Shown: positions 210-63,495, numbered from the stretch's first letter. The stretch is DNA of 64,000 bases from Candidatus Zhuqueibacterota bacterium (GCA_049322915.1 JBMOPW010000010.1:1-64000); one strand, 5' to 3'. The notes: generated from the letters alone by a model not told the origin. A program made the numbers and translations.

Positions 210-3200
210 ATGAACTCTGCCTCAGATTCAAATAAAAAGGAGCTCTCCCCTCTAAAGCGTGCGTTCATTGCGCTCGAAGAAATGCAAAAGAAAGTGAAAG
301 CGCTGGAAGGTCGGCAATCAGAGCCCATCGCTGTGATCGGCATGGGTTGCCGGTTCCCCGGCGCCAATGATCCGGATGCGTTCTGGGACTTGCTGCACAA
401 TGGCGTGGATGCGGTTCGCGAAGTGCCAAAAGACCGCTGGAATATCGATGATTATTATGATCCGATCCCCGGAACCCCTGGGAAAATGTACACGCGGGAC
501 GGTGGTTTCATTGACGCCGTGGATAAATTTGATCCCAACTTTTTCGGCATTTCACCGCGCGAGGCCATGCGCATGGATCCCCAGCAGCGCATTCTGCTGG
601 AGGTCGCCTGGCAGGCGCTGGAGCGCGCCGGGCTCGTGCCGGCCGAACTTGCCGGCAGCAAGACAGGCGTGTTCATCGGCATCAGCGCCAATGATTATTC
701 GTTTATTCAGTTCACGCACGAACAGCACATGGACGCCTATCACGGCACCGGCAATGCGTTCAGCATTGCTGCCAATCGGTTGTCCTATTATTTTGATTTC
801 AAAGGCCCAAGCGTGGCGCTGGATACGGCCTGCTCCTCGTCGCTGGTCGCCACGCACATGGCCGTTCAAAGCCTGCGAAATGGCGAATCCGACCTGGCCC
901 TGGCCGGCGGAGTGAATCTGATTCTCTCCCCGGAAGCGACGCTAATTTTCTCGCACGCGCGCATGATGGCCGTGAAAAATCGCTGCCGCACGTTTGATGC
1001 TGACGCTGACGGCTATGTCCGCGGCGAAGGCTGCGGGATCGTTGTGCTCAAACGGCTTTCCGATGCAAAACGGGACGGCGATACGATTCTGGCCGTGATC
1101 CGCGGCTCGGCTGTCAACCAGGATGGACGCAGCAATGGTATCACGGCGCCCAATGGACTGGCTCAGCAGGAAGTGATTCAGGCCGCGCTGCAAAACGCGA
1201 AGGTCAGGCCGGAGCAGATCGGCTACATCGAAGCGCACGGCACCGGGACCATTCTCGGCGATCCCATTGAAGTGCAGGCGCTGGCCGCTGTGATGAAAGA
1301 GCGTCCCGCGACGAATCCGCTGGTCATCGGCTCGGTGAAGACCAACATCGGACACCTGGAATCGGCCGCCGGAATTGCCGGACTGATGAAAACCGTTTTG
1401 ACACTACAGAATCAGGAAATTCCACCCCATCTTCATTTCAGGAAATTCAATCCGCACATTCTATTCGAAAATATGCCGCTGGAAATTCCGGTGAACGGAA
1501 AACCCTGGCGGCGCGGCGAGAACAAGCGCATTGCCGGGACACACTCGTTCGGCTTTGGCGGAACCAATGCCCACATTGTGCTGGAAGAAGCGCCGATACA
1601 TGAGAAAAAGTCGAGCAAAATCGAACGGCCGCTTCACGTTTTGAGTTTTGGAGCGAGGACCGATGCGGCGCGGGACGAACTGGTTCAGCGCTACCGAAAG
1701 TTATTGACTGACCAACCGGGAGAATCGCTCGCCGATATCTGCTTCACGGCAAACACAGGACGGAGCCATTTCGAGAGCCGGTTGTCGGTGGTCGCCTCTT
1801 CCGTCGGACAAATGCGCGAACGGCTGGCTGGCTACGAAGCCGGCGACCCGGTTTTGGAAATCACCACTGGTCTGAGCTTTGACAGAGCCAGAGCCAAAGT
1901 GGCCTTTTTATTCACCGGCCAGGGTTCGCAATACCCGGGCATGGGGCGCACGCTTTACGAGACGCAGCCGACATTCAAAAAAGCGATGGATACGTGCAAC
2001 GAATTGCTGCGTCCCCATCTTGAAAAACCATTGCTGTCCGTGATTTACCCGGAGGGCGACAATTCAGAACTGATTCACGAGACAGCCTACACCCAGCCGG
2101 CGCTGTTCGCCATCGAGTATGCGCTGGCGCAGCTCTGGCAATCGTGGGGCGTCACGCCGAATTTTCTCATCGGTCACAGCGTCGGCGAATACGTCGCGGC
2201 CTGCATCGCCGGCGTTTTCAGTCTGGAGCATGGCCTGAAATTCATCGCGGCGCGCGGCCGATTGATGGGCTCGCTTCCGCACGATGGCGGCATGGCTTCG
2301 ATTTTCACCAATGAAGCGGCTGTGGCGGCGGCAGTTAAGCCGTACAGCAAGACAATGGCCATCGCGGGGGTGCATTGCCCTGCCAACATCGTCATCTCGG
2401 GAAAGCGGGAGGATGTGCAGCGCGTGGTTGCCGGATTCGCGGCAAAAGGCGTGGAAACCCGTGAGCTGAAGGTGTCCCACGCGTTCCACTCGCCGCTGAT
2501 GGATCCGATTCTGGATGAGTTCGAGCGCGTTGCCTCAGAGTTGCATTATGCCGCACCTGCCATTCCCATTGTCTCCAATCTGACCGGGGAGTTGCTGGAT
2601 GAGCACACCATCCCGGATGCAGCCTACTGGCGCCGGCACATTCGCGAGGCAGTGCAATTCCATGCCGGCATGAAGGCGTTGGCGGATCACGGCTGCGAAG
2701 TCTTCATCGAACCGGGTCCCCATCCGGTGCTGATCGGAATGGGACGACGCTGCCTGCCTCAGACAGATGGGTTGTGGGCGCCGTCCTTGAAGCGCGACCA
2801 GGACGATTGGTCGGCCATGCTCAGCAGTTTGAGCGCGTTGTACGTCAATGGGGTGCAGATGGATTGGCGCGGTTTTGATAGCGATTACAAACGGAATCGC
2901 GTGACCGTCCCGACCTATCCATTTGCGCGGGAGCGTTATTGGGTCGAATTGACAAGCGAAGGTCGAACCGCGCGGCCAGTCGCTGCGCAGATTGAAGAGC
3001 TGCCGGAACAAGGGAGCGAGCCGGCGCCTGAAGCGAAAAAACCGAAAGAGTCAGCGAAACTATCGAAACAGGCTGTGCTGGCGGCGGAACCGAAAGATCG
3101 TCAGAAACTGGTGGAGTCGCAATTGCAGGCAGAACTGGCAAAGGTGCTGGGGCTCAGTCCCAATCGCGTGGATGGGAAGCAGCCGGTGAACAATCTCGGC

Positions 3201-6200
3201 CTCGATTCCATCATGGCCATCGAATTGAAGAATAAAATTGAGAACGTGCTGGACGTGGATTATCCCATCGCCAATTTGCTGGAAGGGCCGAATATCATTC
3301 AAATCGCCGAGCAGTTGGTGAAGTCGATCGAGCAGCCGGACACAACCGCTGTGAAGTTGCAGCCGGCCGGTGAAAAGGTGTCGGAATATGCCCTGTCCTA
3401 TGGTCAGCGCGCCATGTGGTTTCAGCATCAAATGGCGCCGGATAGCATTTTCAATCTGCTGTATGCCGTGCGAATTCGCGACGCGGTCCATGTGAGAATT
3501 TTGAAACTGGCGTTCCAGAAATTGATCGACCGCCATCCCACGCTGCGCAGCACATTCCACTCGGTCAAAGGAGAGCCGGTTCAGAAAATTCATGATGAAG
3601 CGGAAGTGTATTTCATCCATGAAGATGCGTCGTCCTGGAGCGACGAGGCGTTGTTCCAGCGGCTGGAAGAGGAGACCCATCGCCATTTCGATCTGGTGAA
3701 CGGGCCGGTGTTCCGCATTCATCTGTTCTCCCGCTCGGAAAAAGAGCATGTCCTGTTGCAGACCATCCATCACATCGTCGCGGATTTGTGGTCCCAGGCG
3801 ATCATTGCCAACGAAGTGAGTCTGCTCTACTCCGCGCTTTTGATGGAGGAACAAGTCGCGGATCTGCCGGCGCTGGCGATTCAATACAGCGATTATGTTC
3901 GCTGGCAGAGCGAAATGCTCGCCGGGGACGAAGGCGAGCGGCTGTGGAATTACTGGAAAGAAAAACTTGCCGGTCAATTGCCGGTACTCAATGTGCCGAC
4001 GGACAGACCGCGCCCGGTCGTGCAAACGTTCCATGGAAAATCCAAAACAATCTTTCTGGAATCCGGCCTGACCCAGAGATTGAAGCAGATCAGCGAGGAG
4101 ACCGGCAGCACGCTGTACATGACGCTGCTCGCCGCGTTCAACGTGCTGCTCCATCGCTACACCGGTCAGGACGACCTGATTGTGGGCACGCCCACGACAG
4201 GCCGAAGCCACAACGAACTGGCGCCCATGGTCGGCTATTTTGTGAATCCATTGCCCCTGCGATCCGATTTGAGCGGCAACCCACGGTTCACGGATTTCCT
4301 GGCGCAGGTTCGGAAGACCGTCGTGGACGCCATCGATCATCAAAGCTATCCCCTGGGACTCCTTGTCGAGAAATTACATCCGGAGCGCGATACCAGTCGC
4401 ACCCCGCTGTTCCAGGTGATGTTCGTGTTCCAGCGGGCGCATTTGCTGTACGAAGAAGGGCTGTCATCGTTCGCGGTCGGCGAAGAGGGCGCTCAGATGA
4501 ACCTGTCCGGCTTGCCCATGGAGGCAATGCCCATGGAAGAGTGGCTCTCCCCGTTCGACATGACGCTGATGATGGCTGAGTCCAACAAGCGATTGGGCGC
4601 GACGCTCACGTACAACACGGATCTTTTTGACGCGGAAACTATGGATCGTTTCCTGGGTCATTTTCAAAATATGCTGCTCGCCATTTCAACGAATCCTGCG
4701 GAACAGATTGGCCATCTGGCGCTGCTCCAGGCCAGCGAGACCGGGCGACTCATCGAGTCGCTCAATGCAAACGAGGGCGATTTTCCGGCCGACCGATGCG
4801 TTCATCAGGTCATTGGCGAAATAGCCAGCGCCCGGCCCGATGCGGACGCGGTTGTTTTCGAGGATAAAAAACTCACCTATCGGGAATTGAACAATCGCGC
4901 CAATCAACTGGCGCACTATCTGCAGAAGAAAGGAGTGAGGCCGGAGACGATCGTCGCCATCAGCATTGAACGGTCGCCTGACATGATCGTGGCCATGCTG
5001 GGAGTGCTCAAAGCCGGCGGCGCCTATCTGCCCATGGATCCGGACTATCCGACGGAGCGACTGGCGCTGATGCTGGAAGATTCCGGCGCGCCACTGCTGA
5101 TCACTCAAAAAAGCCTTGAACAAAAATATGCGCACATCCGCCCGGGCATCATTTTCATCGACAGCGACTGGGCGTTCATCGATGGCGAGAGCACCGAAGA
5201 CCCGGTCAATCGCGCGCTGCCGGAAAATTTGGCGTACGTGATTTACACATCCGGTTCCACCGGCAAACCCAAAGGCACGTTGTTGCAGCATCGCGGACTT
5301 GTCAATTTTGCCACGGTGCATGTGCGAACGCTGGGAATGAATGGGAACGACCGCATGCTCCAGTTCGCCTCGTTCAGTTTCGACGCTTCGGTGTCGGAGA
5401 TTTTCACCGCCCTGTTCGCCGGGGCGGCGCTGCATCTCGCAAAACGGGAGACGCTGCTCTCCAGTCCGAAGCTCATTGAATTGCTGAGGACTGCCCGAAT
5501 CACCGCGGCGATCATCCCGCCAGCCCTGTTGGCTGTGTTGCCGGCGGAAGTGCTGCCGGATCTGCGGATCATCATTTCCGCCGGAGAGAGCTGCGGCCGC
5601 GATGTGGTCGCCAAATGGGCGCCGGGACGGAATTTTTACAACGGCTATGGCCCTACCGAAGCGACGGTCGGCCCGACGATTTTCAAAGCCGATCCGGACA
5701 AACTGGATTCGGCCACCGTGCCCATCGGTCGTCCGCTTTCCAATGTGAAAGTGTATCTGCTCGACAAATATCTGAATCCGACGCCGCCGGGCATCCCCGG
5801 GGAAATTTACATCGGCGGCGTGTGTCTGGCGCGCGGCTACCATCATCGCGCTGAAATGACAGCGGAACGATTCGTCCCTGATCCGTTCGGACAGAACGCC
5901 GGCGGGCGATTGTACCGCACCGGGGATATGGGAAAATATCTGCCGGACGGGACAATTGAATTTTATGGCCGCGTCGATTTTCAGGTGAAAGTGCGCGGCT
6001 TCCGCATCGAACTGGCGGAGATCGAATCGGTGCTGACGGAGCATGAGGCCATCGAGGAAGTGGTTGTGCTGGCCAAAAAAGACAAAGCCGGGGAGAACCG
6101 GTTGGTGGCCTACATTGTGCCTGACCACAAGCCCCTGCCGGAAAAAAGTGAGATTCGTGAATTTCTGAAATCAAGAATGCCGGAGTACATGGTGCCCACG

Positions 6201-6638
6201 GCGTTTGTCATGCTGGACGCATTCCCGCTGACGCCCAATGGAAAAATTGATCGAAAAGCGCTGCCTGAACCGGACGAATTCAGAGCAAGTGCGGAAGCCA
6301 CCTACGTCAAGCCGCGCACTGAACTGGAGAACGTCGTTGCAACGATCTGGCAGGAAGTGCTCCTGATGGAAAAGGTGGGGATCAATGATAATTTCTTCGA
6401 TCTGGGCGGCCATTCGCTGACCATGGTCAAAGTGCACAGCGTCTTGTGCGAAAAATTAAATCGGGATATTTCCATCGTTGAGATGTTCAAATATCCCACG
6501 GTGCGAACCCTGGCGCGTTTTCTGAGCGAAGAGCAGGATAAAAAACCGGTGTTTGAGGAAAAAGAACAGCGCGCGAAAAGTCAGCGAGATGCGCTGAATG
6601 TGCAACGACAACGGATGATGAACAGGAGAAACAGATGA
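210..6638 (+). CDS. Hybrid type I PKS-NRPS: docking-KS-AT(malonyl)-ACP-C-A-PCP (PKS module 1, NRPS module 1)
   Basis: [28 protein letters not shown] and [53 protein letters not shown]. No KR. A code read by hand: DASIIAGVGK. Confidence 0.96.
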
Positions 6639-9600
6639 GCGACGTAGCGATTCCTGAAGGATATAATGAATTTGATGTGGCTGTGGTCGGTTTATCCGGC
6701 CGATTTCCCGGGGCAAAGGATATCGGGGAGTTCTGGGACAACCTGAAAAACGGCGTGTTCTCCATGAAGTTTTTCACGGATGAAGAATTGCTGGCTGCCG
6801 GCGATGACCCGGCGCTGTTCAGCGATCCGAATTATGTGAAGGCGCGGGGCGTTCTGCAGGACGTCGATAAATTCGACGCCCAGCTTTTCGGTTTCTTTCC
6901 CAAAGAAGCGGAGATACTCGATCCCCAGCATCGGCTGTTTCTGGAATGCGCCCGGGAGGCGCTGGAAAATGCCGGCTGCGACCCGGACCGCTACAAAGGG
7001 ATGATCGGCGTGTTCGGCGGGGTGAGCATGAACTCCTACATCATGAATTACATCGCTTCAAAAGGCGGCGTTGTGAGCACGGCCGAGGGCTATCAACTGA
7101 CGATTGGCAATGACAAAGATTTTCTCGCGACAAAGACGTCGTACAAGCTGAATCTGAAAGGCCCGAGCATCACCATTCAAACAGCGTGCTCGACTTCGTT
7201 GACTGCCATTTACATGGCGTACCAGAGTCTCCTGAGTTTCCAATGCGATATGGCCCTGGCCGGGGGCACATCCATCAGCATTCCCCAGGAGCGAGGGTAT
7301 CACTATCAGGAAGGGATGATTCTTTCTTCGGATGGCTACTGCCGCGCGTTCGACGCCAAAGCGACCGGCACGGTGAGCGGCAACGGCGTTGGCGTGGTCG
7401 TCTTAAAACGCCTGCCTGACGCCATCGCGGACGGCGATTTCATCTACGCCGTCATCAAAGGCGCGGCCTGCAATAATGACGGTTCCATGCGGGTGGGTTT
7501 CACAGCTCCCGGCGTGGAGGGCCAGGCCGACGTCATCGCCATGGCTCAGGCCGTGGCGAATGTGGAGCCGGAGACCATCGGTTACATCGAGACCCACGGG
7601 ACAGGCACGACGCTGGGGGACCCCATCGAAATTGCCGCGCTGACCCAGGTGTTCCGCGAAAAGACTGACGCGTCCGGTTTCTGCGCCATTGGCTCCGTGA
7701 AGACCAATATCGGCCATCTGGACGCTGCCGCAGGCGTTGCCGGCTTCATCAAAACGACGCTATCCCTGCATCATCGGCAGATTCCAGCCAGCCTTCATTT
7801 TGAATCGCCCAATCCAAAAATTGATTTTGCCAGCAGTCCTTTTTACGTCAACGCGAAACTTACGCCCTGGAAAACAAGTGGGCAGCCGCGCCTGGCTGGC
7901 GTCAGTTCGTTTGGCATTGGCGGAACCAATGTGCACGTGATTCTGGAACAGGCGCCGGAGCGGCAACCCTCCGACGTCTTCCGAAAATTGCACATGATCG
8001 CGTTGTCCGCAAAGACAGGCACAGCCCTGGAAACGGCGACGCGCAATCTGGCGGAACACCTGTCCCGCAATCCGCAGGTCAATATTGCGGACGTGGCCTA
8101 CACGCACCACATGGGCAGAAAGGTATTCAATCATCGTCGGGCAGTTCTGGTCGATTCTGCCGAGGACGCAGCATCGGTGCTGGCGAACATGAATCCGGAG
8201 CGAATCATGTCCAGCGCGTTGCCGGCAGACATTTCGGAACAGCCGGTGGTGTTCATGTTCAGCGGTCAGGGCGCACAGTACGCGCAGATGGGGAAGGAGC
8301 TTTACGAAAGCGAGCCCACGTTCCGCGCACACATCGATTATTGCTGCGATTTTCTCGAACCGCATCTTGGACTGGATTTGCGAGAACTTCTTTTCCCTGA
8401 AACCGACCCCGATCAGGCCGGACAAAAACTGAACGAGACGTCGCTCACCCAGCCGGCGCTATTCGTGATCGAATATGCCCTGGCAAATCTCTGGATGGAA
8501 TGGGGCGTGAAGCCCCAGGCCATGATCGGCCACAGCATTGGCGAATACGTGGCTGCCTGTCTCGCCGGCGTTTTTTCGCTGGACGATGCCCTGGTGCTGG
8601 TCGCGAAACGGGGGGCGTTGATGTCATCCATGCCGCCAGGCGCCATGCTGAGCGTGCCGCTGGAGGAAGAAAAAATTAAGCCGTATCTGAATGACCAACT
8701 GACGCTGGCGGCCATCAATGCGCAGGCGCTGTGCGTTGTGTCAGGGCCGTTCGAAGCCATCGACGCGCTGGCGAATCAACTCACCGCCGACGGTGTGGAG
8801 ACGCGCACATTGCACACCTCCCATGCCTTCCATTCCTGCATGATGGACCCGATTCTGGAGCCGTTCAGGCAGGTCGTGGCGCAGATGAAATTGAATCCAC
8901 CGCAGATGCCGTACATCTCCAATGTCAGCGGAACCTGGATCACCGTCGAAGAAGCGACCAGCCCGGATTACTGGGCCACGCATCTGCGCCGGGCCGTGCG
9001 GTTCGCCGATGGAATTGCTGAATTGCTGGACGATCCGGATCGGATTTTCCTCGAAGTGGGACCGGGCAAAACGCTGGCCACGCTGGTGCGACGCGCACCC
9101 GGCAAAACGCCGGGACGGGTCATTCTGTCATCCATGCGCCATCCCCAGGAAACGGAATCAGATCTGAAATTCGCGCTGAACACACTGAGCCGTTTGTGGC
9201 TCGCCGGCGCGAAAATCGACTGGGACGGTTTTTACTGCCATGAGAAACGCAATCGCCTGCCGCTGCCGACCTATCCGTTTGAGCGCCAGCGATTCTGGTT
9301 AGAGGCCGGCGCCGGCGCGCGACTGGCTGGCGCTGTGAAGAGAGACGCCAATAAAAAGCAGCCGATCGGCGACTGGTTTTATGTGCCTTCGTGGAGACGG
9401 GACGATGCGCATCTGGCGTTCCCGCAGTCCAATGGCGGCACGACCGGCAAACGGTGGCTGGTGTTTGGCAATGAAGAGGAACTGAGTTCGCACGTCGTGA
9501 ATGGGCTGGTTCAATCCGGCCACATCGTGACAACGGTGATTGCCGGGACCAAATTCGAACGGGTCAACAGCCAGATGTTCTCGCTGAATCCCACATCCGG

Positions 9601-14300: not shown

Positions 14301-14765
14301 GAGAAACTGCCGGAATACATGATTCCCACGATTTTCATCATTCTGGATGAATTGCCCCGCACGCCCATCGGCAAAATTGACCGCCGGGCGCTGCCTGCCC
14401 CGGATGCGGATCGGGCGCAATTGCAGTCGTACTATGTTGCTCCGCGAACCGCGGTGGAAGAGAGGATTGCGGCGATCTGGGCCGAGGCTCTCACTGTCGA
14501 GAAAGTCGGGATCCACGATAACTTCTTCGACCTGGGCGGTCATTCGCTCATGGCGACTCAAATCATCTCCCGATTGAGACACGAATTCCAGGTTGATTTC
14601 CCGCTGCGCCGATTGTTCGAAACGCCCACGGTGGCGAATCTGGCCATGGCCATTGCCGAATGCCAGGCTGAACAGACCGATGACGCCGCGGTAACTCAGA
14701 TGCTTGATGAAATTGATGGCATGTCCGACGAAGAGGTCGAACTGCTGCTGAAGGAAGAAGCCTGA
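11361..14765 (+). CDS. NRPS: C-A-PCP (module 2; basic residue, Arg-like)
   Basis: C: HHVVSDAW. A core motifs present, hand-read code DAENIGAITK. PCP: GGHSL. LSPEKR N-terminal and SDEE C-terminal docking tails. Confidence 0.95.
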   Translation: MSSILEQLKNLSPEKRELLELLLREKGVDLTESHIVSLGRDTDEFPLSFGQQRLWFLDQLEPGSPLYNNPAAVYLKGPLNTDALENALKEMVDRHEVLRTVFSTRDEKPVQVILNEMPLDWMKLDLRHLTRSGQNEELVRLAKEQAQQPFDLSTGPLFRVGLLQLEDAKHLVLLTMHHVVSDAWSLTIFIREIALLYEAFCDGKKSPLPALKVQYADYASWQHKWLQGKKFEEHLEYWRQKLADIPPLLNLTTDYPRPSFQTFNGKKIPFTLSRGLTESLEKLAKQEDATLFMVLLAGLNVLLNRYTHQDDIAVGTPIANRNRVETESIIGFFINTLVMRTDLSGNPTVRELIRRMRDVALGAYANQDMPFELLVEKLQPERDMSRSPFFQVMFNLMNAPAHELKLPNIVFEPAEMDSETAKFDLTIDMLEDENGKNGWFIYNTDLFAEETIKRMASHYMNILEDMVRQPDTRIRSLRLLTDNEKTVLLEQWNRPGIGVEEKQERLLPQLFEMQTEKSPDTVAVVFENERLTYRALNQRANQLTYYLKQSGVGPETIVGVYLERPLDMIVSLLAIFKSGGVYLPLDPAYPKERLDYMIADSRVPVVITQQRLAGMLPQQGLQCVNLDADFERIASQRINNPEAHANGDNTAYMIYTSGSTGNPKGVQISYIALANHCLNMKKFYDLTPNDHVLQFASFNFDASLEQILPTLLAGAQLVLRGVEVWSPEEFRKNIKEYGLTVINPPTAYWRQLVQEWTQSADTALAKQLRLVIVGGDLMTAENVTTWGALSSDAVNLLNAYGPTEVTITSTIFKVPDSGAVGNYLSGVPIGRPTALRTVYILDSNLNPVPVGVPGELYIGGSCLARGYFNRPEMTAERFIPDPYTRESGARLYRTGDLVRFLHDGNIDFLGRVDNQVKVRGFRIELGEIEAVLSQNPMVDEAVIVALQEKLGGKQLVAYMTLKTGTNPEEATSLFFRNYLREKLPEYMIPTIFIILDELPRTPIGKIDRRALPAPDADRAQLQSYYVAPRTAVEERIAAIWAEALTVEKVGIHDNFFDLGGHSLMATQIISRLRHEFQVDFPLRRLFETPTVANLAMAIAECQAEQTDDAAVTQMLDEIDGMSDEEVELLLKEEA

Positions 14766-31211: not shown

Positions 31212-31284
31212 TCCAGATGTTTGTTGGGGGAATTTAAATTCATAGTTATAAACTCGGTTGTTGATTCTAAAGGAGGAATCGAAT

Positions 31285-33054: not shown

Positions 33055-33119
33055 CGTAGCGTCACCCTTGATAAACCTGATCTCGAACGAACATTATTTT
33101 CAAATTTCAGAAAGTGACT

Positions 33120-56900: not shown

Positions 56901-58366
56901 GCGGTCGCTTGTACAAGAGCGGCGACCTGGTTCGTTATCTGCCCAATGGCAATATTGAGTTTATCAGCCGCATCGATCATCAGATCAAAATACGCGGATT
57001 CAGAATTGAACTGGAAGAGATCGAATCTGTGCTGGCGCAACATCCCAAAGTGAAGGATGTGATCGTCGTGGTGCGCGAACACGTAGCGAATGATAAGCGC
57101 ATCGTGGCCTATTACATTCCGGAGGAAGGCGTAGAACTCACTACGTCTGAATTGCAGGCAGTGGTGCGAGCGCAATTGCCGGAGTATATGATCCCGTCGG
57201 CGTTCGTGTTGATGGATAGTTTACCACTGACTCCCAATGGCAAAGTGGATAAAAAAGCGCTGCCTTCTCCGGATTATTCCAGCACCGACTCGAAGAGGGA
57301 GTATGTGGCGCCCAGGGACACGCTGGAATTAAAACTCTGCAAGATCTGGGAAGAAATGCTGGGCGTCGAGAAAATTGGTGTGCTTGATAATTTCTTCGAA
57401 GTGGGCGGACATTCCTTGCTGGCCGTACGCCTGCTTTCCAAAATTGAACAGCAATTTGAGCGGAGTATTCCGCTGGTCACACTGTTTCAGAATCCGACTA
57501 TTCAGAATCTGGCGGAGTTGCTGCGGGTCGATGAAACCCATGAGACGTGGTCGCCGATAGTGGAATTGCACAATAACTCATCTGAAAAGACGTTGTTCCT
57601 GGTGCATCCATCCGGCGGGAGCGTTCATTGGTATACCAATCTGGCCCAGCAACTGGATCCGGAAATGTCGACCTACGGCATACAGTCCCGCGGACTGGAT
57701 GGCAAGCAAGAACTGCATTCGGAGATAGGCGACATGGCGTCTTATTACGTGGATGCCTTGCTGCGCGTGCAACCGGACGGGCCATTTTATATCGGCGGAT
57801 GGTCGCTGGGCGTGGTCATCGCCTATGAAATGGCGCAGCAACTGAAGGCCATGGGCCACGATGTCGGCCTGTTGGCAATATTCGACCAGGGCCCGTTCGT
57901 TCCGGACGAAGCGCCTGAAGACGATTCTGAAATGCTGGTCCAGATGTTCTCCCGATATTTCCCGTTGGACGTGCTGCAATTGCGGGAGATGGATGCCGAG
58001 GAACGGCTGAAATTCGTTTTCAAAAAAGCGAAGAAAGCGGGTATCATTCCCCTGTTCATAACGCTGAAACATTTCCGCCATTACATCGATGTGATCAATA
58101 TCCAAACTCAAGCGTGGCGGAAATATGATATCAAACCGTATGTCGGGAAAATCACCATCTTCAGGTCAGAACAGAATAGCGATAATATCGAAGCAACGCC
58201 GGATCTGGGATGGGGCGAACTGGCAGAAGGCGGTGTTGAAGTATTCAACGTTGGCGGAGATCACCTTTCCATGTTAGAGGATCCAAATGTGCAGCGTCTC
58301 GCCGAGCAACTGAAAAGGAGCATAAAAAAGGCGAACGTTGAAATGAAAGAGATTATTTATAAATAA
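47954..58366 (+). CDS. Terminal NRPS: (C-A-PCP)x3-TE (modules 11-13; Lys, Asn, Tyr)
   Basis: A codes DAEDIGTVVK, DATKIGEVGK and DASTVAGVCK. Three GGHSL PCPs. TE: HPSGG, GWSLG, GDHLSM. Confidence 0.96.
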   Translation: MTEQMYQKYEEDVFVFPASYAQQRLWFLDQFEPNSPFYNIPSAIRFKGELNSEALEKGIQEIVARHETLRTTFAAVGGKPMQVIHPTLTLPVTRIDLRRNAEAERLDRAAQLAREEARRPFNLSTGPLVRVTLLELDDNDHVVLLTMHHIISDGWSMGVLIREMAILYNAFSHDRPSPLPELEIQYADYAEWQQQYLTGDVLENQLNYWKQQLGDGLSVLELPTDRPRPLVQSSRGSVETLLIPKSVNDRLNELAKKHGATLFMSLLAGFQVLLYRYSGQQDFCIGSPIANRNRSEIEGLIGFFVNTIVLRSRVSAEMSYTELLKLAKETTLGAYAHQDVPFEKLVEALQPERDTSHTPLFQVMFSLQNTSTDVNVAMPQVHLSTLDVDAGTATFDISLLMAEEAAGLSASIEYNTDLFDAATIQRMLNHFHIILQTAVDQPELSLSKINLLTSEEQRQILKTWNQTEETFTGPFTLHERLEHQAARTPESVAVIYESEHLTYKELNERANRFARYLQTLGAAPETVVGVSVERSLNMVVALFGILKTGAAYLPLDPNYPRERLALMLEDSGAPILVTQKHLYEQFADVTCQVVCIDAALNKFADLDASDLNIPVDPKNMAYCIYTSGSTGKPKGVMLTHSSAVNHNFSISQLFRLSPDDHVLQFATINFDAAVEEIFPTLAIGATLVVRNNDILISGADLLRLIDKERLTVLDLPTAYWHEWVTELARSKITLPESLRLVILGGDKASPERFLTWKKLGGNRVSLVNTYGPTETTVVSTMYEPCAAENNTTDLIELPIGRPIANTKIYILDASMQPVPVGVPGELYIGGHGLARGYLQRPELTAEKFVPDPFSNNVGARLYRTGDLVRYRPDGMIEFSGRVDFQLKIRGFRVEIGEVESALRKNTRIQDVAVIATAGETASSEKRLVAYCACLPEDEVTPSELRDFLKAHLPEYMIPSLFVMMEELPKTPNGKLDRKALPDPTGERQNLVQEFIAPRNETEAKLAAIWREILGIEKVGVLDNFFEIGGHSLLATQVMSRIRETFQKELPLRSIFEDATIAGLARLIALVKTDEPGFTAPPIVPVSRDSDLLLSFSQQRLWFLDQLEPGSAAYNIPTAVKVHGALDKTVFHKCLKYLVQRHEGLRTNFREVAGRPVQVIAESLDIQMPEIDIRHIPAEERETEILRLADEDARKPFNLSADPLVRVTLIRADEEEYVVSVTMHHIISDEWSTNILIQEIAQLYDAFALDRPSPLPELTIQYADYAHWQQNWLRGEVLQTQLDYWKNQLAGSPPVLELPMDHPRPAVQTFNGSFISFELEQELSAGIIELSERSGATLFMTLLAAFQTFLFRYSGQKDIVVGTPIANRTRVETESIIGFFINTLVLRTDLSGDPTFRDVLQRVREVALGSYAHQDVPFEKLVDVLKPERELSHSPLFQVMFVLQNTPSRSHETNTGLLLSPIESHSGTAKFDLTLFMVEQDNRLFGTLEFNTDLFEESTILRMSRHFENLLRSIAFNPDLAISTLPLLSESEIQRAVIEWNATKQDYPGDKFLVQAFETQVKKIPTEIAVRYQGQELSYAALNEQANQLAYYLMKQGIGPEVMVGVEIERSLEMMVALLGILKAGGAYVPIDPSYPKERVDYILSDSGIPIILTQSKLMPSLPQTQVHLVQMDVDWDLIRNEKRTNPCVTIGGENLAYMIYTSGSTGKPKGTLITHRGLTNYLNWCLSEYPIRDGVGSLVHSSLAFDATVTGLFAPLLVGRTVTLVPETKDVEIVGSILKESENYSIIKITPAHLELLGQQLTPEEAQGKTRAFIIGGENLTSEHIEFWRKNAPKTKLINEYGPTETVVGCMNYLADPRSKRRGSIPIGFPIGNMQIYLLDSRLAPVPIGVPGEIYIGGEGVARGYHNRPDLTAERFIPTPFSDKPGARLYKSGDLARYLPDGNIEFLGRIDHQVKIRGYRIELGEIEAVLGQFAGVKEIVVVARPDGSQNNRLVAYYVPEEGATVGVTELRTYLKERVPDYMAPAAFIKLDSLPLTTNGKVDTRALPEPEMDRSEMESVYVAPRNSTEQQIAVLWAEILHLEKIGVLDNFFDLGGHSLLATQIMSRIRQTFEIDLPLRLLFESPTIAGLAEHVQSAPRISGSEQEPPLVPMPRDERIQLSFAQQRLWFLDQLEPDNPFYNIPSAIRLQGRLDINAFQQAIALVVKRHETLRTTFKVFEGEPYQVIAPELAINILKLDLTDYSEDDREDKARELAREEAQKSFSLSKGPLFRVTLIKLSSNETVVLFTMHHIISDGWSISVLIREVITLYQGFVSNSAVQLPALPIQYPDFAKWQRTWLQGKVLEMQLTYWEKQLRSIPSILELPTDYPRPAVQSFNGATHTKDIPRHVQEALEQLCRHYDVTMFMMLLAAFQSLLYRYTAQNDIVVGTPIANRNRAETEGLIGFFANTLVMRTDFSGDPTLPELLKQVREMSLNAYAHQDVPFEMLVERLQPQRDLSHTPLFQVMFVLQNLPAQTQRLEQLTLSTVDTESGTANFDLTMGIVERKDGLNVTLEFNTDLFKASTINRMLDHFQTLMEGMVAEPEKRISNLPLLVKAEEQQLWIEWNATHKDYPRSKCIHELFESQVETTPNAIALIFQDQQLTFQELNERANQLARFLRKKGVGPEHFVGVCVDRSIEMVVGMLGILKAGGAYLPMDPAYPKDRIRYMMEDSGVKVLLTQQALLGHLPENHAEKICLDTDWPMIAAEVSGNLKLYSSSSNLAYIIYTSGSTGRPKGVMLQHRGLCNLTLSQIKIFRLKPNSRVLQFASFSFDASVSEVFVALLGGASLHLVTKETLMPGPSLIEYMQDNRISIITLPPSVLAILPENKFPHLKTVVSAGEAVSWEIANRWAKGRRFVNGYGPTENTVCASMYCVDEMEEGSTPPIGRPIDNVQIYVLDRFLNLVPPGVPGELHIGGVGLARGYLNRPELTAEKFIPNPYSEDPGGRLYKSGDLVRYLPNGNIEFISRIDHQIKIRGFRIELEEIESVLAQHPKVKDVIVVVREHVANDKRIVAYYIPEEGVELTTSELQAVVRAQLPEYMIPSAFVLMDSLPLTPNGKVDKKALPSPDYSSTDSKREYVAPRDTLELKLCKIWEEMLGVEKIGVLDNFFEVGGHSLLAVRLLSKIEQQFERSIPLVTLFQNPTIQNLAELLRVDETHETWSPIVELHNNSSEKTLFLVHPSGGSVHWYTNLAQQLDPEMSTYGIQSRGLDGKQELHSEIGDMASYYVDALLRVQPDGPFYIGGWSLGVVIAYEMAQQLKAMGHDVGLLAIFDQGPFVPDEAPEDDSEMLVQMFSRYFPLDVLQLREMDAEERLKFVFKKAKKAGIIPLFITLKHFRHYIDVINIQTQAWRKYDIKPYVGKITIFRSEQNSDNIEATPDLGWGELAEGGVEVFNVGGDHLSMLEDPNVQRLAEQLKRSIKKANVEMKEIIYK

Positions 58367-58443: not shown

Positions 58444-59730
58444 TTGAACGAAGAGAAGTCTAAACCAACAAAACTGTGGAACCGGAATTACTTGCTGCTC
58501 TGGCAGGGCCAGGCAGTGAGCAAAATCGGTTCACAACTTTATCTGATTGCTATTGTGCTATGGCTCAAGCATGCGACCGAGTCAGGCACTCTGATGGGTC
58601 TGATGCCGGCCTTAAGCGGCGTCATCCTGGTGCTGTTGGGCCCGATTGCCGGCACATTTGCTGATCGCTATTCGCGCAGAAAGATCATTATTCTCACTGA
58701 TCTGTTGAGTGGGATTGCGGTGATCGCCCTCGCAGTGCTGGTGTTCTTGCATGGGGGGAATACTGAATTAGTTGTTCTGGGAATCTTTATTATTTCAATC
58801 ATCATGGCGATTCTTTCATCATTTTTCAGCCCGGCAATCGAAGCGTCCATCCCGGACATCGTCCCAAAAGCTCAACTCCGCGGTGCAAACACACTCAGTC
58901 AGTTATCCAATCAAATTGCTATGCTCATCGGTCAGGGATTGGGCGGGACATTTTTCATAATTCTCGGGGGACCACTAATATTCCTCATCAATGGTATGTC
59001 CTTTCTGTTTTCAGGCGTGAGCACGATGTTCGTCTCCATTCCGCAGTCCCTGCCTGAGAGCACGACAGGTGGTTGGAAAAAGCAGTTCCGGGAATTCAAG
59101 GCAAATACAATGGAGGGCTTCCACTATATCTGGCAGAAGTCCGGCTTGCGGGAACTGTTCAGCGTTTCGGCAGTTTTAAACTTCTTCACCATGCCGGTGA
59201 TTATCCTTCTGCCGTTTTTGGTGGAGGACCACCTCAAAGTGAATGTCGCCTGGTACGGAACACTGATGGCTGTGTACGCTGTGGGATCGTTGTTAGGCTA
59301 CACATTCGGCAGCATTCGAAAATCGAACGGGAGAGAGCGAAGGACGTTCATTATCACGTTCCTCATTCTCGAAGCAACGGCTTACGCGGTCATGGGTGTC
59401 GTTTCCTCGCTTGTCATGGCGATGATCTTAGCGACCTTCGCCGGATTCGCAGGAGGATTCATCACGCTCAATATCACCACGCTGTTGCAGATCACCACGC
59501 CGGGCAACATCCGAGGTCGTGTATTTGGCGCGCTGGGGACGTTGGTCGCCAGTATCGCTCCACTGGGCATGGCGCTGGGCGGCTTTGCTTTTGATTTGCT
59601 CGATAAAAATGTGACAGCCATATACGTGACCTGTGGTTCCGTAATGGCGGCTTTATCGATCATGATTTCGTTCAATAAAAAATTCCGCGAATATATTTCG
59701 TTCGAACTGGCTGAGGAAAAAGCTGTGTAG
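58444..59730 (+). CDS. MFS transporter, probable product exporter
   Basis: About 12 hydrophobic segments, MFS motif A GTFADRYSRRK, C-terminal RGRVFG. TTG start with GGGAG RBS. Confidence 0.9.
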   Translation: MNEEKSKPTKLWNRNYLLLWQGQAVSKIGSQLYLIAIVLWLKHATESGTLMGLMPALSGVILVLLGPIAGTFADRYSRRKIIILTDLLSGIAVIALAVLVFLHGGNTELVVLGIFIISIIMAILSSFFSPAIEASIPDIVPKAQLRGANTLSQLSNQIAMLIGQGLGGTFFIILGGPLIFLINGMSFLFSGVSTMFVSIPQSLPESTTGGWKKQFREFKANTMEGFHYIWQKSGLRELFSVSAVLNFFTMPVIILLPFLVEDHLKVNVAWYGTLMAVYAVGSLLGYTFGSIRKSNGRERRTFIITFLILEATAYAVMGVVSSLVMAMILATFAGFAGGFITLNITTLLQITTPGNIRGRVFGALGTLVASIAPLGMALGGFAFDLLDKNVTAIYVTCGSVMAALSIMISFNKKFREYISFELAEEKAV

Positions 59731-59852
59731 CGTAGATTCGTCGGGTATCCGAAGTAGAAATGACGAAATGAAATTACGCAATCAGGTCGGTTCGGTTGTA
59801 ATATACTGTGGCTTCCGCGTCGGGGGGATGAATTTTTCTGGAGGAAAAACCA

Positions 59853-60167
59853 GTGTCAGCGTATTGTAAAGCATATCAACTATCGGCATTGCGTCAATTC
59901 CCCGGCTGGATGGAGCAAAGAACATCGGGCGAACCCGTCGCACAGGATGGCAGCGGGAAGAATTCGATATCGGACCAACTGCGGGAAACAGATTATCTGT
60001 TTTTGCACGATAGCTATGTGGTGACGAACGGAATTTTCGAGGATAAAAATATCGTATTCGATCGGGTGACGCCGGAATGGAAAAAGTTCTGTCAGATAGA
60101 GCTGCAGTTCAATATTCCCGGCGACGATGCCGATAGACCCGGAGACAATCATCGGGTGAAAATTTAA
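59853..60167 (+). CDS. Small hypothetical protein (104 aa), YCKAY...FPGW...EW..FC type
   Basis: GTG start with GAGGA RBS. Protein-like composition. Co-directional, between the MFS and mbtH genes. Confidence 0.7.
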   Translation: MSAYCKAYQLSALRQFPGWMEQRTSGEPVAQDGSGKNSISDQLRETDYLFLHDSYVVTNGIFEDKNIVFDRVTPEWKKFCQIELQFNIPGDDADRPGDNHRVKI

Positions 60168-60480
60168 TAATACAACCTGTAATTCTAAATTAATTTGTTC
60201 AGCGCCGGTCTTCAAATACCAAATAGCGATTAGATACCAATAATCAAAGAGATAAATACAGAACTCAAGCAAAACATGATAGCATGGTTTAAGTGAGCAG
60301 CGGTTTGAAAATTGAAATTTTGGTATTGTTATTTATTTGTGGTTTAGAAATTGTTTTTTGGAATTTTCAGAATTCCAATTTAGAAATTCAGATACAATTT
60401 TAAGTAATGGGGCGCGGGTGAAGGTGTTGCTATGGACATACACCTGAAAAAATTGGGAACACTAAAATAGAGGTGACAAA
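60168..60480 (+). promoter_or_regulatory. AT-rich intergenic region, probable promoter for mbtH-TEII-PPTase-sulfotransferase
   Basis: Visibly AT-rich 313-bp gap. Inverted repeat TTGGAATT-N5-AATTCCAA at 60358-60378. No promoter boxes confidently assigned. Confidence 0.35.
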
Positions 60481-60699
60481 ATGAACAGAGAAGAAAGAGA
60501 AGATACCACGATTTACAAAGTTGTTATCAATCATGAAGAGCAATATTCGATCTGGCCAGCGGACAGGGATAATCCACTTGGCTGGAAAGATGCTGGCAAG
60601 ACCGGCTTGAAGGCGGAGTGTCTCGAATACATTAAAGAAGTCTGGACTGATATGCGTCCGCTCAGCCTGCGAAAAAAAATGGAGGCAATGGGTAATTAG
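60481..60699 (+). CDS. mbtH: MbtH-like protein
   Basis: [13 protein letters not shown]...P.GW...CLEYI...WTDMRPLSL consensus. RBS GAGGTG. Confidence 0.97.
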
Positions 60700-60732
60700 C
60701 CAGCCGTTTCTCCTGCAATGTTTAACTTTTTC

Positions 60733-60762: not shown

Positions 60763-60833
60763 TCGCATTCACCGAAAACGTGCGGATGAATTGTCGTTGA
60801 TTTGTACGTAATTAATAAACTTATTAAAATAGA

Positions 60834-61619
60834 ATGATTCCATCAACTAATGCTACAGCCTGGTTTGGGTATTACAAGCCTAAATCAGAGGCCACAATGC
60901 GATTGTTCTGTTTTCCCTTTGCTGGCGGAAATGCGTTGACATATCGGACCTGGGGCGATCTGCTGCCCCGCTGGCTGGATGTGTGTCCGGTGGAGTTGCC
61001 CGGCCGCGGCAGCCGGCTGCGCGAAGCCCCGTTCACCGATATTGCGACGCTCGTACCTTCACTGGGGCGCGCGCTGGTTTCGTTGCTGGATAAACCATAC
61101 GCGCTGTTCGGCCACAGTCTGGGCACGCTCATCGGTTTTGAACTGATTCGCTATTTCAGAAAAAATTCCCTGCCGCAGCCAGTGCACTTTTTTGTGTCCG
61201 GGCATACGTCGCCGAGTTGGCCCGGGACGCATCCGCCCATTCATAATCTGCCGGAATTCCAATTCATTCTGGAACTCAGAAAGCTGAATGGCACGCCCGA
61301 GGCAGTGCTGGCGAACGATGAACTGATGCAACTTCTTTTACCAGTGTTGCGCGCTGATTTTGCCATGAATGAAACCTATACGTATCGCGAGTCGCTTCCA
61401 ATTGACTGTCCCATCACTGCGTTCGGTGGAACGGAGGACAAGGATGTCACGCGGGAGAGTCTGGAGGCGTGGGCAAAGGAGACGCGGGGCAATTACTCAT
61501 TGACGATGCTCGCCGGTGACCATTTTTTCATCCAGTCGTCACAGCAGGTCATTCTGGCTTCGGTAGAAAACGAGCTGTCCCGGCATGCGCAACATACTGT
61601 TGCGAGGAGAGTTGGGTGA
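60834..61619 (+). CDS. Type II (editing) thioesterase
   Basis: RLFCFPFAGG, VELPGRG.R, GHSLG nucleophile motif, LRADF, GDHFF. Confidence 0.95.
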   Translation: MIPSTNATAWFGYYKPKSEATMRLFCFPFAGGNALTYRTWGDLLPRWLDVCPVELPGRGSRLREAPFTDIATLVPSLGRALVSLLDKPYALFGHSLGTLIGFELIRYFRKNSLPQPVHFFVSGHTSPSWPGTHPPIHNLPEFQFILELRKLNGTPEAVLANDELMQLLLPVLRADFAMNETYTYRESLPIDCPITAFGGTEDKDVTRESLEAWAKETRGNYSLTMLAGDHFFIQSSQQVILASVENELSRHAQHTVARRVG

Positions 61620-62362
61620 GCCTTGCTCAAAATGTCTGGAAGACGCCTCCTGAAAATTTGATCCTTGAAAATTCGGAGGCGCATGTCTGGAAAGTGCTGC
61701 TCAACAGATCAGACTCGCAGATTGACCGGTTGAAGACTGTCCTTTTGCCGGACGAACATACCCGGGCCGGGCGTTTTTATTTTCAAAAAGACAGGGATGC
61801 ATTCACCATCGCCAGAGGGATGCTGAGGATTATCTTGAGCCGCTATGTGCGCTTTGAACCCAATGAATTGGCGTTTGATTATTCATCATACGGCAAACCC
61901 TCTCTTCAGGCGCGGTTCAATGCAAACATGCTGCAATTCAACCTGTCCCATTCTCATCACATTGCCCTGATCGCAGTGTGCTGGCAGCACGAAATCGGCG
62001 TGGATGTGGAATGGATGCGCGATACCCTGTCTGACATGCAGATTGCAGAGAGATTTTTTTCGCCGGCGGAAGTGGCGGCGCTTCTAACCGTACCGCCGGC
62101 CGAGCAGAAGGGGGCTTTTTTTAATTGCTGGACCAGAAAGGAAGCGTTCATCAAGGCCAAAGGCATGGGCCTCTCCATTCCGCTGGATCAATTTGATGTG
62201 TCGCTGAAACCGGGTGAACCGGCCGTCCTGCAGCAAACCGGTTTCGAGCCGGACGAAGCCTGTAAATGGGCAATGATCGATGTCCCGCTGGAGAGCGACT
62301 ATCGCGCGGCGCTGGCGATTTCGAGAACGATAACACGAATTACATATTGGCAAGCAGCCTGA
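61616..62362 (+). CDS. Sfp-type 4'-phosphopantetheinyl transferase
   Basis: GKP, FNLSHS, IGVDVE, WTRKEAFIKAKG. GTGA overlap with TEII. Confidence 0.95.
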   Translation: MSLAQNVWKTPPENLILENSEAHVWKVLLNRSDSQIDRLKTVLLPDEHTRAGRFYFQKDRDAFTIARGMLRIILSRYVRFEPNELAFDYSSYGKPSLQARFNANMLQFNLSHSHHIALIAVCWQHEIGVDVEWMRDTLSDMQIAERFFSPAEVAALLTVPPAEQKGAFFNCWTRKEAFIKAKGMGLSIPLDQFDVSLKPGEPAVLQQTGFEPDEACKWAMIDVPLESDYRAALAISRTITRITYWQAA

Positions 62363-62415
62363 GATTGCGACAATTGAAGTCGAGTTTTTCACAGAAACGG
62401 AAAAGGGAACCTGTC

Positions 62416-63495
62416 ATGGACAGCCTGATTGGACTCACAGCGAGTGATTGGTGGAAACTTTTAAGAGATAATCGTTTTGCCGTGGAACCGTCGCACTGGT
62501 TCAAAGCATTTTTATTGACAATTTTTTCAGCCAACAATTCGTTTTTCAAACGACGGGAAGATCGCATCTACCTGCCCGAGGTGGAGAAGCAGGAGATAAC
62601 AAAACCGCCTGTCTTCATTTTGGGGCATTGGCGCAGCGGCACCACCCATCTCCACAACTTGTTCGTGCTGGATAAACAATTTGCCTATCCCAATCTGTTT
62701 CAAGTCAATAATCCGCATACATTCCTGTACAAGGAACCGAAATATGCCAAGCTCTTTGCCAGAATGCAGGCGGAAGAGCGTCCCATGGATAATGTCAAAA
62801 TCGATCTGAAAAGTCCCGGCGAAGAAGAATTCGCTCTGGGCGCGCTCAGCCTCATCACCCCATTGCTGGGGTGGCCATTCCCGCAGAGAGAAGAATATTA
62901 TGACCGCTATCTCACTTTCCAGGATGTTTCCAAAGAGACTATCGACAAGTGGAAGTCGTCATTCATCCTGTTTGTGAAAAAGCTCACCTGGCGATACGAG
63001 AAACAGTTGGTCCTGAAATCCCCGGCCAATACTGGACGGATAAAATTGCTGCTGGAAATTTTCCCGCAGGCAAAAATTGTCCACATTCATCGGAATCCCT
63101 ATGCCGTTTTCAAATCGACTGTGGGACTGTACAAAAAAGCCGTGGCCTCGGCGTATCTGCACCATCCCAAAAATAGCGACACCACGGAAGGAATTTTGAA
63201 ACGGTACAAAGAGATGTACGACTGCTTCTTCGACCAGCGCCATTTAATTCCTGATGGCAATTACATAGAGGTGAGTTTCGAGGAACTGGAGGCGGATACG
63301 ATGGGTCAAATGGAGCGAATCTACTCGAATTTGAGGCTGCACGGTTTCGGCCAGCTGCAACCCAGGTTGCACGAATACATCGAAGCCAATAAAAAATATG
63401 AGAAGAATCAGTATAAGTCGCTGGAACCAGCCCTCAAAGAGCGCGTTGCCGGTAGCTGGCGCCGGAGTTTTGAAGAGTGGGGGTATGAAATTTAA
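62416..63495 (+). CDS. Stand-alone PAPS-dependent sulfotransferase (Stf3/Sulfotransfer_3-like)
   Basis: PVFILGHWRSGTTHLH, P.EEE, LVLKSP.NTGRI, HIHRNPY.VFKS. ATG 62416 preferred because the longer ORF overlaps the PPTase. Confidence 0.9.
   Translation: MDSLIGLTASDWWKLLRDNRFAVEPSHWFKAFLLTIFSANNSFFKRREDRIYLPEVEKQEITKPPVFILGHWRSGTTHLHNLFVLDKQFAYPNLFQVNNPHTFLYKEPKYAKLFARMQAEERPMDNVKIDLKSPGEEEFALGALSLITPLLGWPFPQREEYYDRYLTFQDVSKETIDKWKSSFILFVKKLTWRYEKQLVLKSPANTGRIKLLLEIFPQAKIVHIHRNPYAVFKSTVGLYKKAVASAYLHHPKNSDTTEGILKRYKEMYDCFFDQRHLIPDGNYIEVSFEELEADTMGQMERIYSNLRLHGFGQLQPRLHEYIEANKKYEKNQYKSLEPALKERVAGSWRRSFEEWGYEI

Follow-up and report, generated by a model that had tools for sequence, protein, structure and literature searches.

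What pathway is encoded by the first 64,000 nucleotides of contig C10 of Candidatus Zhuqueibacterota bacterium (GCA_049322915.1, JBMOPW010000010.1:1-64000), and how might its output be controlled? This stretch (the window) carries nine large open reading frames (ORFs) and five small ones (O1 to O14, Table 1), arranged head to tail on the plus strand and free of frameshifts across 64 kb. A first-pass annotation had described 15 collinear modules of polyketide synthase (PKS) or nonribosomal peptide synthetase (NRPS) type, accompanied by an exporter, an MbtH-like protein, a type II thioesterase (TEII), a phosphopantetheinyl transferase (PPTase) and two sulfotransferases (STs). All of these elements were found, on the plus strand, by a Pfam scan run alongside a domain map built from the window's own exemplar domains, the modules comprising two of PKS and 13 of NRPS type, in order. 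It is probable, in our view, that the greater part of a functional, uncharacterised hybrid PKS/NRPS cluster lies in the window; it would make a fatty-acid-capped, cationic, sulfated peptide, and one of its modules may be gated by a PilZ domain lodged within its adenylation (A) domain.

The assembly line, its start and its predicted product

Catalytic motifs are intact throughout the window. The ketosynthase (KS) domains all have the Cys-His-His residues and the acyltransferase (AT) domains all have GHSxG and HAFH, while HHxxxD is kept by every condensation (C) and epimerization (E) domain (HHLAIDG in the E domain of O4; HHIVADL in the C domain of O1, the same in a sister species). Ser is present in all carriers (T or ACP), the two that precede E domains reading GGDSI, and GxSxG is found in both the terminal thioesterase (TE) and TEII. 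The ketoreductase (KR) of O2 has YAAAN and the NADPH motif GGLGRIG; neither the LDD motif nor the diagnostic Trp, the markers for KR stereochemical type, was seen in it. The C domains that follow E domains (the first of O5 and the first of O8) reach only 142 and 135 bits when scored with an LCL exemplar, versus 435-498 bits for the remaining elongation C domains. These low scores indicate DCL-type domains and, consequently, D-residues at modules 6 and 10. Intact collinear module sets and a terminal release domain are both present, as in modular type I PKS/NRPS hybrids.

The pathway does not start at base 210, where the first-pass annotation had its 15 modules begin, since the contig itself starts inside dispersed repeats. 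Comparing bases 1-1500 with the genome gave 44 matches, nearly all to bases 1-31 or 33-106. The longer of the two repeat units, of about 75 nt, also terminates contig C45 (C45:180106-180181), just past a gene (O0) for a fatty acyl-AMP ligase (FAAL) joined to a PKS module. When the 6.25-Mb genome was searched by tblastn with the domain exemplars, this end of C45 was the sole other PKS/NRPS stretch. In a sister species of the same genus (genome G124; the window genome is G000), one contig carries a GNAT gene, a FAAL-ACP-KS-AT-DH-ER-KR-ACP gene (2,936 aa) and the orthologues O1' to O4', that of O1 being 77% identical. A GNAT gene upstream of the FAAL gene on C45 is 82% identical to the G124 one. 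This identity, together with the G124 gene order, indicates that the GNAT and FAAL-PKS genes belong to the cluster and form its actual start. Judged from synteny, C45 almost certainly abuts C10, and the repeats split the assembly between the cluster's first gene and O1. The 31-nt unit opens with an 18-nt palindrome; the two units recur at about 40 other places in the genome, several contig ends among them, either singly or in tandem arrays (one on C14, around 817159-817475, has three copies). Both resemble REP-type (repetitive extragenic palindromic) elements that break up this assembly.

The ten pocket positions of each A domain were read from a MAFFT alignment of all 13, with GrsA numbering; as a numbering control, the domains of modules 8 and 12 yield DAWTIAAVCK. 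We take the codes of modules 8 and 12 to be those for Phe, that of module 6 for Gln, those of modules 11 and 14 for Asn and that of module 15 for a Tyr-like residue. Four pockets (modules 4, 9, 10 and 13) have Glu at position 239, with Asp at position 278 in three and Asn in module 4; their acidic character suggests basic residues. In G124 the module-13 position reads DVGEIGSIDK, presumably an Orn code. The module-5 code appears Val/Ile-like, and those of modules 2 and 7 are related to the codes for Tyr/Phe, from which they differ by smaller residues at two or three positions out of ten. These independently aligned codes reproduced the residue classes that had been read by hand and the lack of a Ser/Thr module (none of the 13 is Ser- or Thr-like). 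They also make the earlier cationic and aromatic composition plausible, with four acidic pockets, two Phe, one Tyr-like and two Tyr/Phe-related codes. Firm calls are limited to Phe, Gln, Asn and Tyr-like; "Arg", "Lys" and "Ile" are better regarded as guesses.

Collinearity predicts the following route. The FAAL-ACP on the neighboring contig would load a fatty acid. The adjoining KS-AT pair (KS0-AT0), whose own DH-ER-KR-ACP is lost, would either be bypassed, the acyl-ACP passing straight to the KS of O1, or borrow a neighboring carrier. Because O1 is devoid of reductive domains, it would add one unreduced malonate, giving a 3-oxoacyl group amide-coupled to residue 2 (aromatic-type pocket). O2 would extend the module-2 aminoacyl thioester with malonate and reduce the ketone, forming a statine-type gamma-amino-beta-hydroxy acid. 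The units formerly drawn, though not named, as X-[CHOH-CH2-CO] are better read as this single amino acid, predicted from module 2 and O2. The residues to follow would be basic-like, Val/Ile-like, D-Gln, aromatic-like, Phe, basic-like, D-basic-like, Asn, Phe, basic-like, Asn and Tyr-like. Release by the TE would occur by hydrolysis or by cyclization onto the ketide OH or an amine. Sulfation dependent on 3'-phosphoadenosine-5'-phosphosulfate (PAPS) would take place twice, through an in-line CurM-type ST acting on a carrier-bound intermediate and through the free ST elsewhere. The predicted product is an acylated, statine-bearing peptide of 13 residues, cationic, aromatic and sulfated.

FAAL-primed hybrid lipopeptide synthetases are known from the iturin/mycosubtilin type and the cyanobacterial puwainaphycin type. 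Going by description, the present system shares with them FAAL-ACP loading, PKS extension, collinear NRPS modules with E/DCL pairs, a terminal TE, MbtH, TEII and PPTase, and some of its ST-bearing relatives are labelled "iturin family lipopeptide synthetase A". Unlike them, it has no aminotransferase domain and places a second PKS module mid-peptide (the statine-type unit); further differences are the ST domain in mid-line, the A domain interrupted by PilZ and a carnitine acyltransferase (cAT)-like gene. The domain order thus supports a collinear hybrid lipopeptide pathway with two STs, as first proposed. The compound had not been recognised as a known one, and we too found no characterised relative: homologues carry generic names only, the literature yielded nothing on this cluster, and a genome-contig search with O3 returned the sister-species contig alone. 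By these proxy searches (homologue names and literature) the cluster appears to be a genuine orphan. No characterised nonribosomal peptide from KSB1 was found in the literature; the structure predicted here, from an uncultured FCB-group (KSB1-type) lineage, is testable by synthesis or mass spectrometry.

A PilZ domain within the module-10 adenylation domain

Alignment of the 13 A domains revealed an insert of about 110 residues in that of module 10, between A8 (GRVDHQVKIRGFRVE) and A9 (LPEYMVP). The domain is otherwise intact (A3, A7 and the A10 Lys are present) and is thus an interrupted domain of the a8-a9 kind. Receptors of cyclic di-GMP (c-di-GMP) belonging to the PilZ family are defined by two motifs, RxxxR and (D/N)xSxxG. 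Both are found in the insert, as RRHER and DISPGG. An AlphaFold2 (AF2) model of O7 residues 1960-2199, obtained with a 19-row alignment (mean pLDDT 78.9), was used as a Foldseek query. It matched the PilZ structures 4i86, Alg44 (4rt0), 4xrn, MapZ (5xly) and YcgR (5y6g) with template modelling (TM) scores, by target, of 0.78, 0.71, 0.71, 0.65 and 0.63, respectively, and it also matched the C-terminal lobes of A domains (1amu). When the 116-aa insert was compared with PDB sequences, nothing but a chance match to Axin (E 0.062) came up.

The insert therefore shares the beta-barrel fold (TM by target 0.63-0.78) and both motifs with the PilZ receptors YcgR, Alg44, BcsA PilZ and MapZ; unlike them, it is embedded in a biosynthetic megasynthase. 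Interrupted A domains of the a8-a9 kind have been described as carrying methyltransferase, ketoreductase or oxidase inserts (Lundy, Mori, Garneau-Tsodikova 2020, PMC8341866). Module 10 resembles these in that its A domain, intact in other respects, has a foreign domain spliced in between A8 and A9, and differs in that the spliced-in part has a PilZ receptor fold and is no tailoring enzyme. In the main text of that 2020 categorization the words PilZ and c-di-GMP are absent (PMC8341866), and nothing on PilZ-interrupted A domains was found in the published literature.

Conservation of the insert follows that of the protein around it. Orthologues of O7 at 95% and 80% identity keep both motifs and align gap-free over 2,756 residues, and the insert shows 80% identity, against 77% overall; its dN/dS between G000 and G124 is roughly 0.1. 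Inserts of this type occur in six of 167 genomes of the phylum, all in the window's family (G000 and five of the 13 other members), and always within ORFs of 1,260-2,893 aa. These six genomes, from four genera, hold eight inserts, at 29-54% identity; RxxxR is kept in 8/8 and DxSxxG in 7/8, the eighth having Glu for Asp. In two relatives both A domains of an O7-like protein are PilZ-interrupted with RxxxR intact (G131 C135:3459-7310; G132 C30:47521-51372), the Glu replacement being found in the second insert of G132.

The pattern extends beyond the phylum. A profile-free search with the insert over 1.84 billion representatives gave 19 matches, of which 12 were scanned with Pfam: all nine over 1,000 aa and three of the ten shorter ones. 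All but one of the nine long proteins are NRPSs or PKS-NRPSs in which PilZ occupies this same position, often in tandem; named sources include Microcoleus and a metagenome-assembled genome (MAG) of Acidobacteriota.

Situated in the mobile C-terminal lobe of the A domain, the PilZ domain would most likely bind c-di-GMP and gate module 10, and such gating would tie peptide output to a biofilm second messenger. We tentatively propose, from the model and the motifs, that in this bacterial family c-di-GMP binding to the barrel could directly switch module 10 on or off, so that the lipopeptide would form solely when the cells are in a particular state of biofilm growth or motility. The genome has six GGDEF matches (five over the cut-off) and a single PilZ match, this insert; among the nine PilZ matches in five relatives, seven lie within NRPS-sized ORFs. 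In G000, G124, G130 and G132 the only PilZ found is the NRPS insert. If the proposal is true, the PilZ receptor class in these genomes exists essentially for NRPS control.

A possible, if rather doubtful, alternative is that the insert has become a structural or docking module that no longer senses c-di-GMP and perhaps serves subunit contacts or localization. PilZ-fold proteins without ligand binding exist, and the inserts of cyanobacterial and acidobacterial NRPSs mostly keep DxSxxG but have RxxxR down to one Arg, as is mostly the case in six of the eight PilZ-NRPSs recovered by an A8/A9 scan. This degeneracy implies that ligand binding is not a general property of PilZ-interrupted A domains. 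Within the window's family, however, both motifs persist in all eight inserts (with the one Glu for Asp) at 29-54% identity, the insert is as constrained as the rest of its domain, and the genome makes c-di-GMP (GGDEF) yet has no other PilZ. Gating by c-di-GMP is retained as our working proposal. The cluster combines two widespread, unstudied NRPS features, a PilZ-interrupted A domain with c-di-GMP motifs intact and a mid-line CurM-type ST, and is thus one of the better candidates in which to test for post-translational control of an assembly line by a second messenger.

Two sulfotransferases of different kinds

The ST domain built into O4 matched the ST of CurM (curacin A) in the PDB (4gbm, E 9.9e-68, 298 of 341 residues aligned) and an olefin-synthase ST (4gox, E 1.1e-58). 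Alignment with both runs over the whole length and includes the PSB-loop (PAPS 5'-phosphosulfate-binding), SPPRSGST, which is conserved; by this full-length homology the domain is classed as CurM-type. Its setting differs from the ACP-ST-TE order of CurM and the olefin synthase, which goes with sulfation of a beta-hydroxyacyl thioester and then decarboxylative elimination: within an elongation module, an NRPS carrier comes before it and a normal C domain after it (T-ST-C). Since it does not precede a TE, decarboxylative off-loading chemistry cannot apply. O14 had 2z6v as its sole PDB match (E 1.7e-6) and no match to CurM, which assigns it to a different subfamily on sequence grounds. These two are the only Sulfotransfer_3 matches genome-wide. 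An APS (adenosine 5'-phosphosulfate) kinase scoring 238 bits is encoded in the genome, so a PAPS supply is available.

Proteins of this kind are common: 896 long NRPS proteins carry a CurM-type ST at E <= 1e-5, and the order C-A-T-ST-C-A-T-E recurs in 51 of the 120 listed among them. Their source names include KSB1, Calditrichota, Ignavibacteriae, Acidobacteriota and Chloroflexota. The 139 A domains preceding an ST (in 116 proteins) were Val/Ile/Leu-like in 53 cases, Tyr-like in 21, Ser-like in 21, Thr-like in 17, acidic-pocket in 10 and other in 17. In proteins the size of O4, the pre-ST domain is aliphatic in 38/53, and 34 of these are followed by an A domain that bears the Gln code DAQDLGMVDK. 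Conservation of this "aliphatic-ST-D-Gln" cassette indicates that the ST probably does not act on the adjacent residue. The in-line ST may act on the ketide OH or else on a residue close to module 5. As G124 combines two in-line STs with a single ketide hydroxyl, the ketide OH cannot be the only kind of target. For the free ST, O14, the most plausible target is a phenol. A role of sulfation in masking the charge of the peptide, suggested by the first-pass annotation, found no support. Many of the listed ST proteins (P0024-P0143) end in T-ST-TE, the peptide counterpart of ACP-ST-TE in CurM. These are mostly in Acidobacteriota-labelled MAGs, and some of the listed ST proteins have two or three ST domains.

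Could the in-line ST be an activating enzyme, adding to a beta-hydroxyl a sulfate that later leaves to give an alkene or dehydro residue, so that the final product bears at most one sulfate? The CurM ST and the olefin-synthase ST, its closest solved relatives, both create a leaving group, and the predicted chain contains a single beta-hydroxyl, the ketide OH introduced by O2, a protein with no DH. We nonetheless regard this as unlikely. The CurM ST precedes a dedicated TE, whereas an ordinary C domain comes next here, and the pre-ST A domains counted above include Tyr-like and acidic-pocket ones (21 and 10 of the 139), whose side chains cannot eliminate. Moreover, the STs embedded in the NRPSs OciA and DysB give stable sulfate esters (PMC2533009, PMC6520454). 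OciA (cyanopeptolin/oscillapeptin) and DysB (dysinosin) have loading-module STs that make sulfated glyceric acid (PMC2533009, PMC6520454). O4 has in common with them an ST domain built into an NRPS protein; unlike theirs, this domain belongs to an elongation module and follows an A domain of the aliphatic type. No study of the mid-line layout was found in the literature on NRPS sulfotransferase domains.

Deletions, selection and the surrounding genes

Comparison with G124 exposed several losses. The O0 protein is 79% identical to its G124 counterpart over residues 1-1628, after which the match resumes at residues 2893-2936. A Logan contig from a second assembler, probably made from the same reads, spans this junction gap-free. 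Between O4' and O5', G124 has an extra gene (C-A-T-ST-C-A-T-E, 3,003 aa, G124 C4:34622-43633). Part of the O4-O5 spacer of the window (about 23862-24362) matches it in blastx over aa 8-184 (27% identity, E 0.003), a second match having 58% identity over 26 aa (E 1.4e-4). In blastn the spacer also gives a match of 75% over 240 nt to the stretch that precedes O5', and its 3' end (about 180 bases; alignment window 24565-24800, reaching into O5) is a conserved O5 leader. By these alignments, the spacer remnant is interpreted as the decayed N-terminus of the lost C-A-T-ST-C-A-T-E gene. Finally, O9 has three modules and a TE, and O9' in G124 has four modules and continues, indicating loss of at least one terminal module; O6 is absent from G124. 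The sister comparison thus shows module-level evolution caught in progress, with three in-frame deletions that could be useful for assembly-line engineering rules. O0 in particular offers a naturally occurring case of a module that has been deprived of its carrier.

The genes that remain are under constraint. Between G000 and G124, dN is 0.11-0.23 and dN/dS about 0.05-0.14 in every gene with a computable dS, a range that covers KS0-AT0, the ST and the PilZ insert; these ratios are rough, dS being saturated, and exclude whole O0 and its FAAL-ACP half, for which dS was not computable. It is quite improbable that the cluster is a decaying relic whose line was broken by the deletions and yields no mature product, as the truncated O0, the pseudogene remnant between O4 and O5 and the shorter O9 might imply, since all surviving ORFs are intact with their catalytic motifs, the deletions preserve the reading frame and obey module logic (docking tail kept; E followed by a DCL-type C), and the remnant has fallen to 27% identity while the genes hold their low dN/dS. 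A decayed remnant beside constrained genes suggests that, once the deletions had occurred, the cluster long persisted under selection. The pathway appears to have been shortened but maintained, and not to be a wreck.

Apart from the eroded RxxxR of inserts outside the family, several points weigh against our interpretation of the cluster. The first PKS module is without a carrier, DH-ER-KR-ACP (1,264 residues) having been deleted in frame with the docking tail retained, and initiation may be impaired by the carrier loss. The join of C45 to C10 rests on synteny, and independent contigs end within the repeat. The Phe, Gln, Asn and Tyr calls depend on tabulated codes, and seven of the 13 codes (modules 2, 4, 5, 7, 9, 10 and 13) were not found in the published literature. 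Lastly, the residue preceding the in-line ST is aliphatic in most O4-like relatives, as counted above, and no hydroxylated residue is predicted beside this domain.

Among the remaining genes, O6 belongs by family and fold to the choline/carnitine acyltransferases: it scores 139 bits against PF00755 (cut-off 22.3), its PDB matches are choline and carnitine acetyltransferases (ChAT/CrAT), and its Atlas structure gives a TM of 0.86. The catalytic His is missing; where ChAT has CEHSPFDG, O6 has CNFTVYVDG, placing Phe at that position. The signature C[NS]F...DG is present in 9/9 copies of O6 homologues, all of which also conserve a His in NRW(F/Y/Q)H. O6 may transfer acyl groups by means of a relocated base, or it may be a partner without catalytic function. 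Release domains of the cAT type occur in fungal PKSs. O6 shares the fold with these and with choline/carnitine O-acyltransferases and is encoded inside a PKS/NRPS cluster; unlike choline/carnitine acyltransferases, it lacks the catalytic His of the E-H-S motif, and it is free-standing. Among 166 other genomes from the phylum, 11 have homologues, at least four of which are beside PKS or PilZ-NRPS genes (G070 and G071; G130 and G132, where the contig is shared with a PilZ-NRPS). A relative-locus search with O6 over genome contigs gave no relative. The His-less branch (L007-L013), which has gained the conserved NRW(F/Y/Q)H His, thus recurs beside PKS/NRPS genes. Tandem or fused pairs of O6-like proteins occur in G130 (C6:155077-158635) and G126 (C414, one 1,211-aa frame).

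Table 1. Features of the cluster (window positions unless a contig is named; ten-residue strings are A-domain pocket codes).
Feature	Position	Strand	Content
O0, FAAL-ACP-KS-AT	G000 C45:174972-180062 (L004:14770-19860)		1,696 aa; docking-like acidic C-terminal tail
Dispersed repeats	1-106	.	31-nt palindrome-bearing unit and ~75-nt unit
O1	210-6638	+	KS-AT-ACP-C-A-T (Pfam, domain map); KS-AT-ACP without reductive domains; C-A-T is module 2 (DASIIAGVGK)
O2	6635-11296	+	KS-AT-KR-ACP (Pfam, domain map)
O3	11361-14765	+	C-A-T; module 4 (DAENIGAITK), acidic pocket
O4	14865-23816	+	C-A-T-ST-C-A-T-E; modules 5 (DAYFSGVTFK) and 6 (DAQDLGMVDK)
In-line ST domain of O4	18309-18956	+	Pfam Sulfotransfer_3 1.6e-23; between module-5 T and module-6 C
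O4-O5 spacer	23817-24743	+	928 bp; no ORF matching a family
O5	24744-31211	+	C-A-T-C-A-T; modules 7 (DAASIAGVGK) and 8 (DAWTIAAVCK); first C DCL-type; docking-like tail
O6	31258-33054	+	choline/carnitine-acyltransferase-like, PF00755 2.5e-40
O7	33114-41390	+	C-A-T-C-A(PilZ)-T-E; modules 9 (DAEDIGTVIK) and 10 (DAEDIGTIIK)
PilZ insert in module-10 A domain of O7	39210-39500	+	Pfam PilZ (PF07238) 3.7e-10
O8	41387-47800	+	C-A-T-C-A-T; modules 11 (DATKIGEVGK) and 12 (DAWTIAAVCK); first C DCL-type
O9	47954-58366	+	C-A-T-C-A-T-C-A-T-TE; modules 13 (DAEDIGTVVK), 14 (DATKIGEVGK) and 15 (DASTVAGVCK)
Terminal TE of O9	about 57590-58318 (aa 3213-3455)	+	motif GWSLG
O10, MFS transporter	58444-59730	+	PF07690 9.9e-34, PF05977 2.5e-26
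O11, MbtH-like	60481-60699	+	PF03621 5.4e-23
O12, TEII	60834-61619	+	PF00975 3.2e-39; motif GHSLG
O13, Sfp-type PPTase	61616-62362	+	PF01648 4.4e-18, PF22624 9.9e-12
O14, free-standing ST	62266-63495	+	PF13469 1.8e-34

The O10 transporter, of the major facilitator superfamily (MFS), probably serves export or self-resistance. The gap of about 750 bp between it and the MbtH-like gene (59731-60480) contains only a 104-aa ORF (59853-60167, plus strand) and a 130-aa ORF (59880-60272, minus strand), neither with a Pfam match.

The synthetase genes have a G+C content of about 0.54-0.57, the small genes at the 3' end 0.49-0.51 and the genome about 0.485. Contamination as the source of a high-GC cluster (0.55 vs 0.485) was considered and rejected: dispersed repeats typical of this same genome are present at the start of the contig, and the 180-kb contig that bears the FAAL gene also has genes of the type IX secretion system (T9SS) type. 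Homologues of O4 at 60-67% identity are labelled KSB1, and the host is an uncultured FCB-group (KSB1-type) bacterium. A search of sequencing runs found no RNA run containing the stretch and one DNA run that holds it, a biofilm metagenome, which may be the source of the assembly.

At the borders, a T9SS-tailed protein is encoded upstream of the GNAT gene, and O14 is followed by a nitroreductase, an amine oxidase and housekeeping genes. The nitroreductase-family gene (279 aa, C10:63733-64572, minus strand) converges on the end of the cluster (window 63434-64000).

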